A stretch of DNA of 64,000 bases from an uncultured bacterium (lineage in GTDB: Bacteria; Chlamydiota; Chlamydiia; Chlamydiales; CAZBXE01): the NCBI GenBank assembly GCA_964496125.1, contig CAZBXE010000001.1, positions 102,011 through 166,010 on the forward strand. The letters run 5' to 3'. Made by a program: the position numbers and the translations under genes. Each line of letters begins with the position of its first letter. Position 1 is the first letter of the stretch. Below, piece after piece: positions 13,637 through 26,683 of this stretch. The notes beneath the pieces are model-generated. The model searched no databases and was not told the origin of the DNA. It saw nothing but the letters and a program-made list of their open reading frames with translations.

Positions 13637-13642
13637 AGTTTT

Positions 13643-13718
13643 GCTGGCATAGCTCAACTGGTAGAGCACCCGACTTGTAATCGGACGGTTGTGAGTTCAA
13701 GTCTTACTGCCAGCACCA
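13643..13718 (+). tRNA. tRNA-Thr (anticodon TGT), copy 1, CCA encoded
   Basis: Acceptor GCTGGCA/TGCCAGC, anticodon loop CTTGTAA, T-arm GTGAG-TTCAAGT-CTTAC, 3' ACCA. Confidence 0.9.
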
Positions 13719-13729
13719 TTTTCCTTTCA

Positions 13730-13812
13730 GGGGGTGTCGCATAGCGGCCAATTGCTTCGGACTGTAAATCCGACGACTCCGGTCTACGCTGGTTCGAATC
13801 CAGCCGCCCCCA
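13730..13812 (+). tRNA. tRNA-Tyr (anticodon GTA), copy 1, long variable arm
   Basis: Acceptor GGGGGTG/CGCCCCC, anticodon stem TCGGA/TCCGA, loop CTGTAAA, T-arm CTGG-TTCGAAT-CCAG. Confidence 0.9.
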
Positions 13813-13970
13813 TTTCTTTGGACGATTCTTAAAACCCAACATCGTTAAGAAGGGTTCTCTCACTGAAAATGAGAGACTTCCGTCTTTCAATTGCAAGTTC
13901 TGAAACAAAAAATTGTAATGACCAAGATATCATCGGACAGTTGTGTAGAAATCTCGTTTTCAAATACAAT

Positions 13971-15148
13971 TTATATGTAGTTTCCGCCCATCTGTTTTAA
14001 CCAAGAAAGTGCTGAGTAAGCAGAGCCTGTTCGGATCATCACATTTTCAATAAAATCAATAATTGGTTGTATCGTTGGATCTGCAAATCTTTGATGGATT
14101 TTGAAAGTATTTTCCTGGACTGATATTTGACCAATCCTTTTATGATCTTGAGATATCGCGAGAGAATCAATGTGGAAACCACGGACCGTCCCCCCTCTAA
14201 AACTTTTAACATCTCTTCCTTCAGTAGCAGATTCTACAAATGAACTAGTATGCAAAGCTCCAATTTTGTGGTTATTTAATAAGGCTCGGATTTGTGCTGC
14301 ATCGTATCTAAATGAATATGATTCCGCTGGGGCAAACCTTACATTCTCCAACTTCTCTTTTACAAAAGCTTCCCATACTTCTCTTGAAGGAGCCAGGATA
14401 ACCGAGCTTCCAACATGGAATATACCATCGTGATCATAATAAGAACTCATGCTGTCTTCATGCTGAACATATCTGGTAGTAAAATCCTTAAAAGATTCAG
14501 ACGCTCTTGGGTATTTGACAGGAATACCACATGATTGATGCATCCAATACATGCCTTCATAATATAATTCAGAGCCAATCTGAGACCCATTTTTCAGAGC
14601 TTGACCAAATTGATAATCTAATTGTCTATCACCTTTTCCAACAAAAGGTTGTAATTGAACTGCAAAACCATAACTGTTTGTATGCCATTTCCACTCTTTG
14701 TATTTGAGTTCTAGAAATGCAGGCAGGTAACCCCTGCTGGCAGCTTCTTGGAAAGTTTCCTGCCTCGGGAATCGCGTGTTTTCCAATCAGATTTTTCTCC
14801 CATTGCTTGATCATACGCTGAATTGAAAAGAGCAAAGTCTCTACAACAGTAAGAAAACGTCTCTAAATCTCTAGCGCTTAAAGAAGGAAAATCTTTTTCG
14901 TCATCTTTACCCCATTTGATTCCAAAAAGAGCATGGGAAAGTTGAATTTGTGAGAGAACATCACCTTCTTTTACAGCTTGCTTGAATAGAGTATTGCACG
15001 TTTCTACACTTCCTTTAAGTAACATCCTAATTTCATTGATATCACCTCTAGCATGCCTAATTGCTTCAAGGTTCATTGCTGTCGTGCCAATAGCTTGCTG
15101 AAATGCCACTGAGTGTGATTTGGTGGCATGCAAAATGGGACTTGTCAT
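13971..15148 (-). pseudogene. Hypothetical protein gene split by a frameshift (ORF 15148-14711 and ORF 14786-13971)
   Basis: The upstream ORF has a strong SD (AGGAGGAAAGTTATG). The downstream ORF starts only at a TTG directly after an in-frame TGA, and the two overlap by 76 nt in -1 register near A-runs. The region is visibly AT-richer than its neighbours. Confidence 0.45.
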
Positions 15149-15310
15149 AACTTTCCTCCTTACGCCTTTCTTGTGGCAAGGGTTATCAGTCTTCGGGACT
15201 TTAGGGCCGAAAACAGTATAAGAAGGAAGGCAATCAACGAATCTGCGATCGCATAAGAGGAAGATTCTACTGAATTTTTTAACTGTTTAAGAGATCTGTT
15301 GTTCGTAGGG

Positions 15311-15595
15311 TTACTGTGGGATAGCGGTGTGAAAGCGGAGTGTAAATTGCATGGGGCCCGGCATACGATTTTGCTTCGGAGCAATGTCTACTTGTAAGGT
15401 GTGTTTATTGGTTGTGATCAAATACCCTTTTTCGTTCTGTTCGATCTTAAGGATAAGGTCAGCTGAGTCTAACGCTTTACTGAGCTCCTCGCTTTTCAAG
15501 ATCGCCTCGATTTCTTTTTTGCTTTGGTAAAAGGGGGGAAGCGCAGCAAAGGCTGCTTGTGCAAGTAAAAGGTGCAAGAGTAATATTTTTTTCAT
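15311..15595 (-). CDS. Small secreted hypothetical protein
   Basis: 94 aa with signal peptide MKKILLLHLLLAQAAFA. Confidence 0.5.
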   Translation of the reverse strand: MKKILLLHLLLAQAAFAALPPFYQSKKEIEAILKSEELSKALDSADLILKIEQNEKGYLITTNKHTLQVDIAPKQNRMPGPMQFTLRFHTAIPQ

Positions 15596-15610
15596 ATATA
15601 CCGACTTGTT

Positions 15611-25722: not shown

Positions 25723-25730
25723 GATAGCAC

Positions 25731-25757
25731 GGGCATAGCGCAAAGTGCACTATGCCC
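25731..25757 (+). terminator. Possible terminator hairpin after the M4 protease gene
   Basis: GGGCATAG-11 nt-CTATGCCC stem directly after the stop. There is no clear T-run. Confidence 0.3.
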
Positions 25758-25809
25758 AACTTTCCCTTGCGAGAAACAAAAAGGTTTGGTATAAGTTTTA
25801 TTTCGATTT

Positions 25810-25885
25810 GCTGGCATAGCTCAACTGGTAGAGCACCCGACTTGTAATCGGACGGTTGTGAGTTCAAGTCTTACTGCCAGCACCA
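25810..25885 (+). tRNA. tRNA-Thr (anticodon TGT), copy 2
   Basis: Identical in sequence to 13643-13718. Confidence 0.9.
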
Positions 25886-25896
25886 TTTTCCTTTCA

Positions 25897-25979
25897 GGGG
25901 GTGTCGCATAGCGGCCAATTGCTTCGGACTGTAAATCCGACGACTCCGGTCTACGCTGGTTCGAATCCAGCCGCCCCCA
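25897..25979 (+). tRNA. tRNA-Tyr (anticodon GTA), copy 2
   Basis: Identical in sequence to 13730-13812, including the 11-nt spacer. Confidence 0.9.
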
Positions 25980-25990
25980 GTTTTTTTGGA

Positions 25991-26683
25991 GTGAGATTGT
26001 TCGAAACGGCTCCGTTTCTTGTTCTTATCCTTCTAGTAGCGATACATCTTTTTGCTTGTAAAGCCGAACTCTTTGGTTGGCTCTGGCATGGAAGGTTTCT
26101 TTCGTTTGCCTCGGGGATCTCATTTGCTTATGTCTTTGTAGATCTATTGCCTGCTTTAGAAAAAAGGCAGCCCGTCCTTAAAGAAGCCTTCCATGGCGTA
26201 ATCCCTTATCTCGATTTACATGCGTATGTCATGGCTCTTTTTGGGGTTCTTTTTTATTACGGGCTGCATACGCAAACACCTTCCCTTAGAAATTTTTGGC
26301 TCTCCCTATCAGGTTATCTTCTTTTTAACTTTTTAGTAGGCGCAAGCTTGTCAGATGGGACAAGTCCTGATATTCAACCCCTCTACCTTTTTGCGATCGC
26401 CATGGGGATGCACTACTTTATTCATGACCATATGGCAAGTCTCAGTTACCCAAACCTCTATCAAGCAAAAGTGCGCTTTTATTTGATTGGAGCGCTTTTT
26501 GCTGGATACTTCATAGGGGGAGTGATCCATATCCCGGAAACTGTGGAAGCTATTTTAGTTTCGTTTGTTGCCGGAGGCATGATTTTAAATGCTCTTGGCT
26601 ACGAACTACCCAAACGAGAACAAATTGGTTACGCCTTTTTTGTTCTTGGTTCCCTTTCTTACACAGCTCTTCTTCTCAGATAA
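25991..26683 (+). CDS. Polytopic membrane protein, tentatively ZIP-like metal permease
   Basis: The track ORF begins inside tRNA-Tyr, so I moved the start to the in-frame GTG 25991. It has about 7 hydrophobic segments and His-rich HYFIHDH and IHIPETVEA motifs (weakly like HNxPEG). Confidence 0.4.
   Translation: MRLFETAPFLVLILLVAIHLFACKAELFGWLWHGRFLSFASGISFAYVFVDLLPALEKRQPVLKEAFHGVIPYLDLHAYVMALFGVLFYYGLHTQTPSLRNFWLSLSGYLLFNFLVGASLSDGTSPDIQPLYLFAIAMGMHYFIHDHMASLSYPNLYQAKVRFYLIGALFAGYFIGGVIHIPETVEAILVSFVAGGMILNALGYELPKREQIGYAFFVLGSLSYTALLLR

Follow-up and report, generated by a model that had tools for sequence, protein, structure and literature searches.

Why should a bacterium carry the same pair of tRNA genes twice, in identical form and 12.2 kb apart, with a collection of rare genes held between the two copies? 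The question is raised by a 64,000-nucleotide (nt) stretch of DNA, here called the window, from an uncultured member of the Chlamydiales (lineage CAZBXE01; GenBank assembly GCA_964496125.1, contig CAZBXE010000001.1, positions 102,011 to 166,010), in which a tRNA-Thr/tRNA-Tyr cassette stands as a direct repeat at both ends of a segment of accessory genes. An original prediction, made from the sequence without database searches, took the repeats to mean that either an island had targeted the tRNAs or the tRNA pair had recently undergone segmental duplication. The simplest account, to which a probability of roughly 0.55 may be given, is that the pair alone was duplicated within the genome and has been kept alike by gene conversion, the two copies possibly lying in tandem first and being split later by gene gain.

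The extent of the repeat sets the terms for everything that follows. Among the six tRNA genes that ARAGORN finds in the window are those of copy 1 (13640-13813, + strand), which consists of TTT, tRNA-Thr(UGU) at 13643-13718, an 11-nt spacer and tRNA-Tyr(GUA) at 13730-13812, and those of copy 2 (25807-25980, + strand), which has the same parts with tRNA-Thr(UGU) at 25810-25885 and tRNA-Tyr(GUA) at 25897-25979. In pairwise alignment the two are co-oriented and agree at 174 of 174 bases, from the TTT 5' of tRNA-Thr to the discriminator A of tRNA-Tyr, and their Rfam scores are equal (67.9 and 55.2 bits in either copy). A repeat search returns one long near-perfect direct repeat in the window, 13640-13819 versus 25807-25986, at a spacing of 12,167 bp, and the alignment still shows 98.9% identity when it is lengthened to 184 bp. 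ARAGORN, Rfam, the repeat search and the alignment thus all confirm the identical, same-orientation tRNA-Thr/tRNA-Tyr repeat that had been predicted, and put its extent at 174 bp. Upstream of the two copies, pairwise alignment detects zero similarity; the similar flanking nucleotides of the prediction are the identical TTT before the cassette and, after it, just a T-rich resemblance of about 10 nt, TTTCTTTGGAC versus GTTTTTTTGGAG. Comparison of 13-27 kb with the whole window by tblastx and blastn finds no flanking duplication around the copies beyond 174-184 bp, the duplicated sequence in this interval being the tRNA pair, the phosphatase paralogues, a dispersed repeat and a repeat at 26.5/26.9 kb. 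A larger segmental duplication is ruled out, since no other duplicated DNA follows either copy. Likewise, a search with 26-32-nt sub-patterns of the repeat gave 0 matches in shuffled windows and no further partial tRNA fragments of the pair in the window itself. Given a correct draft assembly, this genome therefore contains at least two intact paralogous tRNA pairs.

Which of the two copies is the older can be read from the relatives, all comparisons being at family or order distance, with best identities of 53-70% (RecR, TtcA, membrane protein). The best relatives for these three proteins are all Chlamydiota, namely Parachlamydiaceae, Waddliaceae, Simkaniaceae and unclassified metagenome-assembled genomes (MAGs). 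Copy 1 begins 7 nt past the stop codon of a gene for a small SEC-C-motif protein (13391-13636, + strand; PF02810 on the equivalents in relatives L075, L078 and L079), which lies directly 5' of it, and the penultimate gene of the same conserved block is a ttcA-family PP-loop gene (12578-13315, - strand; Pfam ATP_bind_3, with homologues named TtcA). In the three relatives with long contigs that were compared around copy 1 (L075, L076 and L078, the last a Candidatus Protochlamydia MAG), the order YitT, tRNA-Val/Asp, SurE, an unknown protein of about 600 amino acids (aa), AAA_5, TtcA, SEC-C, tRNA-Thr, tRNA-Tyr is collinear, and tRNA-Thr(tgt) and tRNA-Tyr(gta) keep their relative orientation. A wider sample of 120 metagenomic loci (L084-L203) was drawn by a degenerate pattern joining the 3' end of tRNA-Thr to the 5' end of tRNA-Tyr; by tblastn, TtcA is encoded upstream of the pair in 77 of the 120 and the SEC-C protein in 76. 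When the sample is confined to the 63 informative loci, those with at least 1.5 kb upstream of the pair, TtcA lies upstream in 51, at a median distance of 525 bp, and five of the 12 exceptions have one different conserved context in common and resemble a separate clade. Because the position ttcA - SEC-C - tRNA-Thr - tRNA-Tyr is conserved in relatives, copy 1 is the ancestral copy.

The surroundings of copy 2 are of another kind. It sits between a hairpin 3' of an M4 metalloprotease gene (inverted repeat, 25732-25750) and the start of a gene for a conserved chlamydial membrane protein of about 230 aa (25991-26683, + strand), which matches no Pfam family and has homologues of 59-68% identity, for example in Parachlamydia acanthamoebae UV-7. 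The membrane-protein gene starts 12-18 nt past the tRNA-Tyr of copy 2, with GGAG at 25987-25990, and its product aligns with the homologues from about residue 3; copy 2 is probably transcribed together with it. In Parachlamydia acanthamoebae (L080-L082) and on the ENA contig L083, no tRNA lies within 10 kb of the membrane-protein homologue. Given that these homologues stand in relatives with no tRNA nearby, copy 2 is the derived copy. The reverse proposal, in which the membrane-protein gene is the ancestral downstream neighbour of the pair, was rejected, the gene being absent beside the pair in about 125 related loci and its homologues having no tRNA nearby; apparent membrane-protein matches at the metagenomic loci are the translated tRNA-Tyr itself.

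The membrane-protein gene also accounts for a "second scar" that the earlier reading of the sequence had placed just to the right of copy 2. The last 186 nt or so of the gene (26483-26668) occur again at 26857-27044 with 94% identity. This second copy is a non-coding relic 374 bp downstream that ends 2 nt before the stop codon of a CBAH gene; between the two is an incomplete copy of the dispersed repeat (about 26684-26725, - strand), and the C-terminus of the window's membrane protein is about 4 aa shorter than in its homologues.

How two pairs 12 kb apart have come to be identical is best approached through the spacer between the two tRNA genes, which in relatives is 6-80 nt long and unalignable. 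Across the 120 metagenomic loci there are 109 distinct spacers, repeats occurring mostly in near-identical loci or among very short spacers, and a pattern specific to the window's spacer has 0 matches in the metagenome collection. Similarly, the window's tRNA-Tyr is lineage-specific, with an extra D-loop base, a compensated anticodon-stem change and a T-stem change that are alike in both copies and absent from the 12 related loci inspected in full and from three relatives, and the relatives' pairs differ from the window's in tRNA stems. The two copies within this genome are thus closer to each other than orthologues are between genomes, the unconstrained spacer included. Since plain divergence after an old duplication would alter the spacer, the identity points to either a very recent copy or gene conversion. 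It is best explained by gene conversion between functional copies, that is, by concerted evolution, and otherwise by very recent copying. Conversion also explains why identity stops at the functional gene ends, the flanks offering no homology by which the tract could lengthen. As a separate observation on these genes, an encoded CCA closes the window's tRNA-Thr (13716-13718 and 25883-25885), and is absent there in three aligned relatives.

Copying that was recent and was followed by no homogenisation, whether a larger tandem duplication since trimmed by deletions or a template switch that copied the pair, would account for the full agreement over 174 bases with the unconstrained spacer among them and for an alignment that extends to 184 bp, and the repeated end of the membrane-protein gene, a local duplication 500 bp away, shows that such events take place here. 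Yet neither side retains any further duplicated sequence, an end placed exactly at two functional gene ends would be a coincidence, and the neighbouring duplication has diverged by 6% whereas the tRNA pair has diverged by 0. This alternative is accordingly doubtful. As for the recent segmental duplication of the tRNA pair that had been predicted, the duplication stands, on the strength of the conserved position of copy 1 and the shared variable spacer, but it is not segmental, nothing being duplicated past 174-184 bp, and what looked recent may be homogenised instead.

Gene conversion and concerted evolution are known for rRNA genes and other paralogues, as described in two papers (PMC8022953, PMC6053082). 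Like multi-copy tRNA genes that evolve in concert, the window has two intact, identical and co-oriented copies whose identity is limited to the functional genes and a short spacer, with unrelated flanks, and which form direct repeats long enough for homologous recombination. It differs from them in that the unit is of two tRNAs, in that the copies lie 12.2 kb apart and not in tandem, and in that they enclose nine or ten genes, recR among them; conversion itself would here be deduced from the comparison of the copies.

The DNA that the copies enclose poses the second half of the question. Conserved gene order stops at the pair, and the downstream DNA is different in almost every relative. From 36 loci, the 6 kb that follow the pair gave 111 open reading frames (ORFs) of at least 150 aa, and 96 of these are without a counterpart in any other locus; together the 111 match 133 Pfam families, foremost outer-membrane proteins, hydrolases, ankyrin repeats and methyltransferases. 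Among the Pfam families that match at least two of the 111 ORFs there is no integrase, families with a single match being unlisted, so that rare integrases are possible, and the phylum-wide boundary of gene order shows no obvious mobility machinery. The genes of the window's segment adjoin the pair in no relative, either in L075, L076 and L078 or at the 120 metagenomic loci. The tRNA-Thr/Tyr pair next to ttcA is a phylum-wide edge between conserved gene order and a fast-changing accessory region. One candidate for an ancestral neighbour beyond this edge, a GNAT fragment, was set aside as too isolated, being found in one relative only (L078). It lies about 1 kb downstream of the tRNA pair there, in collinear orientation (7949-8083), and resembles the C-terminal 45 aa of a two-domain GNAT acetyltransferase of the window (40966-42042; match 40987-41121) at 73% aa identity.

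In composition the segment is native. Its GC content is 0.434, compared with 0.444 elsewhere in the window; by tetranucleotide distance, the interval from 14 to 26 kb does not stand out (z = -0.39); and GC skew keeps the sign of the flanks except in two bins, 14-15 kb and 24-25 kb, the second of which covers the proline-rich part of the M4 gene. Codon usage, compared between nine segment ORFs and 19 flanking genes, gives a G+C content at third codon positions (GC3) of 0.40 versus 0.435 (p = 0.10) and a distance with p = 0.28. Only two overlapping ORFs beside copy 1 (13971-14786 and 14711-15148, together 13971-15148, - strand), a putative single frameshifted gene with no family match, stand apart, with a GC of 0.39-0.41 and a GC3 of 0.30-0.33, below any other gene examined; these ORFs may have been acquired more recently, or may belong to a gene in decay. 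The profile of GC and codon usage across 13.8-25.8 kb that had been proposed as a check therefore speaks for native DNA with respect to the flanks, this low-GC3 pair excepted. Further, Pfam, PHROGs and NCBIfam reveal no integrase, recombinase, transposase, phage or plasmid functions in the ORFs of 13971-25722, and no excisionase was found in the segment.

These results bear directly on a decayed tRNA-targeted island, an element that would have inserted 3' of tRNA-Tyr, brought the effector-like genes and lost its integrase, leaving the repeats as attL and attR. The segment does begin directly after a tRNA gene, at a place where downstream content is hypervariable; the enclosed genes are rare or orphan-like; the ORF pair beside copy 1 is low in GC3; and tRNA-adjacent islands are on record in the Parachlamydiaceae. 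In Protochlamydia amoebophila UWE25, two identical tandem tRNA-Gly genes, 88 nt apart, lie at the proximal end of Pam100G, an island of 100 kb with 17-bp bounding repeats that is partly G+C-deviant and carries transposases, phage genes and a tra operon (PMC548262), while PnaK_GI2 of Protochlamydia naegleriophila is a 15-kb strain-specific region directly downstream of tRNA-Thr (PMC5010888). The window resembles both in its chlamydia-related host, in an accessory segment that starts at tRNA genes and in flanking direct repeats, but unlike Pam100G it has whole-tRNA repeats in place of 17-bp ones and is without transposases, phage genes, a tra operon and deviant GC. It shares with the classical integrase-mediated tRNA islands and prophages a place just 3' of a tRNA gene, a direct repeat at either end and lineage-specific, virulence-like genes. 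In classical islands, however, attL and attR are formed from the 3' part of a tRNA gene. Here the repeat is a complete two-gene pair that starts 3 nt before tRNA-Thr, so that whole functional tRNA-Thr and tRNA-Tyr genes are repeated from the 5' end of the first and no 3' tRNA fragment serves as a short att core; no integrase gene stands near one end, GC, tetranucleotides, codon usage and GC skew are native, and a vertically inherited core gene, recR, lies inside. The tRNA-targeted island of the original prediction is consequently supported in a loose sense only, that of hypervariable downstream DNA with lineage-specific genes, and has no support in the strict sense. An island that has decayed is unlikely, and the 12 kb between the copies is best read as resident DNA of native composition which no integrase-driven element brought in.

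The recR gene (22955-23551, - strand; Pfam RecR domains) deserves attention of its own. The window's RecR is 53-57% identical to those of seven Chlamydiota relatives (L001-L007), which are 48-64% identical to one another save for two close pairs at 83% and 91%. In all seven relatives, which belong to several families, the order is FabG-FabD-FabH, RecR, Omp85(BamA)-OmpH-LpxD, with the FabG-FabD-FabH cluster divergent in orientation; none of FabG, FabD, FabH, Omp85(BamA), OmpH and LpxD is encoded in the 64-kb window. The window's recR is thus a vertically inherited chlamydial gene out of its conserved neighbourhood, and has either been relocated into the accessory region or is an extra copy. Its separation from its conserved neighbours argues that intragenomic rearrangement shaped the segment, and a foreign island gained as one unit would hardly be expected to contain a vertically inherited core gene. 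ABC-transporter genes at 51-53 kb were considered as ancestral recR neighbours and dropped, since at about 45% identity they may be generic paralogues.

Foreign DNA could also have entered with no island machinery at all. A circle, whether a plasmid or one derived from a co-infecting chlamydia, that bore its own pair and 12 kb of sequence might have crossed over once with the resident pair, in a Campbell-type integration. Such an event would explain why the repeat coincides with the tRNA pair, which alone is conserved from one chlamydial lineage to another, and it needs no integrase, which fits the absence of one; recombination between strains in one host is well known in chlamydiae. The donor, however, should carry SEC-C and ttcA upstream of its pair, where copy 2 has the orphan M4 gene and the hairpin. 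Both copies bear the same lineage-specific tRNA-Tyr changes, so the donor would be nearly the same organism, and the enclosed DNA is native in composition. Moreover, Pfam finds no replication or partition families in the segment, and a blastn search of the segment against 72,556 plasmid records gave 0 matches. Integration of this sort is quite unlikely. A more mundane possibility is that the chromosome has one pair and that assembly threaded the repeat node twice, by way of a strain variant or a separate circle. The sequence comes from a draft contig, and an exact repeat of 174 bp exceeds typical short-read k-mers. Against this, the junctions are sensible, copy 1 being preceded by the SEC-C stop, and copy 2 standing between the hairpin and a gene start with its ribosome-binding site; the enclosed DNA matches the flanks in composition and skew; and it contains none of the replicon genes looked for. 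An assembly artefact is very unlikely.

On the preferred account, an intragenomic duplication homogenised by conversion, copy 1 is the ancestral pair at the edge of the conserved block of ttcA and SEC-C, and a lineage-specific duplication of the tRNA-Thr(UGU)/tRNA-Tyr(GUA) pair would have taken place within the accessory region that lies downstream of the pair in Chlamydiota, giving rise to copy 2 as an extra intact pair 12.2 kb on, just ahead of the conserved membrane-protein gene. The pair may first have been doubled in tandem, in the manner of the two identical tRNA-Gly genes of Protochlamydia amoebophila, and the copies then driven apart as genes were gained at the insertion-prone site behind the first tRNA-Tyr. 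Gene conversion between the copies would keep the pair alike, and the segment would be a mosaic in which rare effector-like genes stand beside copies of the dispersed repeat and a recR moved in from elsewhere. We infer this order of events. An ancient, stable arrangement shared by related genomes would have spoken against the original prediction; relatives have one pair per locus and none of the segment genes adjoining it, and the arrangement is thus not an ancient shared one.

Several points weigh against this account. Exactly one pair is present in each of the 120 metagenomic loci and no second pair in the available sequence of relatives, but this count is a weak test, as 2 of the 120 loci reach at least 12.2 kb downstream of the pair and 6 that far upstream. 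Seven of the 63 informative loci hold the pair in other, unshared contexts, and these could be second copies or rearrangements. The collections searched contain no close relative (the best TtcA identity is 70%), so the order and age of the events are not reconstructable. The part given to gene conversion is drawn from the pattern of identity, and no mechanism is shown for setting exactly one pair 12 kb away. A promoter scan finds no sigma-70-like site ahead of copy 2, whose independent expression is unproven; a candidate chosen by eye, TTGCGA-17-TATAAG (25767-25795), fails the scan rule and is a suggestion only. Finally, the sequence belongs to a draft contig (282,643 bp), in which the assembly across the 174-bp repeat is provisional.

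Whatever their origin, repeats of this kind have consequences. Homologous recombination can act on 174 identical bases, so it is plausible that RecA-dependent exchange between the repeats deletes or amplifies the segment, recR included. The identical tandem tRNA-Tyr genes tyrT/tyrV of E. coli, an example of tRNA genes kept alike by concerted evolution, lose a copy by unequal recombination. The prediction is specific: segment genes should be removed or multiplied together with recR. A bolder version would make of the repeat-bounded 12.2-kb unit an integrase-independent recombination cassette, with the tRNA pair as portable homology through which the block loops out, amplifies and re-inserts. 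Were this so, the cassette could move between co-infecting chlamydiae, the pair being the one sequence conserved between lineages, and would help to explain the hypervariable DNA downstream of the pair in Chlamydiota with no call for an integrase. It is nevertheless a highly improbable reading.

Set among known systems, this is a new case of a known kind, in which a variable locus anchored at tRNA genes has its accessory DNA flanked by duplicated, identical tRNA genes. As a marker of genome plasticity in environmental chlamydiae it is of modest value. What interest it has comes chiefly from the displaced recR and from the edge of conserved gene order that runs through the phylum, and a new mechanism is not established; how far the locus has been rearranged is seen from recR, which lies outside the neighbourhood that several chlamydial families conserve. 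Further, the accessory region of this lineage encodes candidate host-targeting proteins, namely tyrosine phosphatases, a kinase-like protein and an M4 protease.

The phosphatases are tandem paralogues of about 530 aa (19505-21094 and 21104-22726, both - strand; Pfam Y_phosphatase, E = 1.9e-23 and 2.3e-26). They are 28% identical to each other, and each joins an unknown N-terminal region of about 300 aa to a classical (eukaryote-type) tyrosine-phosphatase domain; the family is rare, with no more than 11 cluster representatives passing E <= 1e-30 in 1.84 billion proteins. Next to them is the kinase-like protein with an N-terminal IQ motif (18188-19477, - strand), for which the Pfam matches are weak: IQ at E = 1.4e-4 (21.8 bits, cut-off 20.3) and Pkinase, below threshold, at E = 4.3e-4 (20.2 bits, cut-off 31.7). 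With its IQ calmodulin-binding motif it is a candidate host-targeting protein. The M4 (thermolysin-like) metalloprotease (23761-25722, + strand; Pfam Peptidase_M4 and Peptidase_M4_C) has a long proline-rich region and PTWSE repeats near its C-terminus, and a word-based search of 5.8 billion proteins gave the query alone, so that it is unusable as a synteny anchor. The segment also encodes a DUF2156/LPG_synthase_C-domain protein (15611-16681, - strand; Pfam PF09924, E = 2.6e-19) and a protein of 336 aa (17124-18134, + strand), previously described as a repeat protein, which has no Pfam, PHROGs or NCBIfam match. The gene content first listed for the space between the copies is thus mostly right. 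What does not hold is that effector-like genes are confined to the segment, for a eukaryote-like F-box and WD40 beta-propeller gene lies outside it, at 36334-37443 (- strand).

The dispersed repeat resembles repetitive extragenic palindromes (REP) or miniature inverted-repeat transposable elements (MITE). One copy lies at 16901-17084 (+ strand), with the hairpin-forming core AAATTGAAAGCGCCTCCWTGGCATATTCCCGACTTTYCAATT, and a second at 22827-22898 (+ strand), between a phosphatase gene and recR. A further copy is found at 60645-60827, which, with the partial one beside the membrane-protein gene, completes a family whose members are 63-82% alike and whose hairpin core reads AAATTGAAAG-CGCCTCCWTGGCATATTCCCGA-CTTTYCAATT. 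The two direct copies within the segment bracket the sub-block of unknown, kinase and phosphatase genes at 17.1-22.8 kb.

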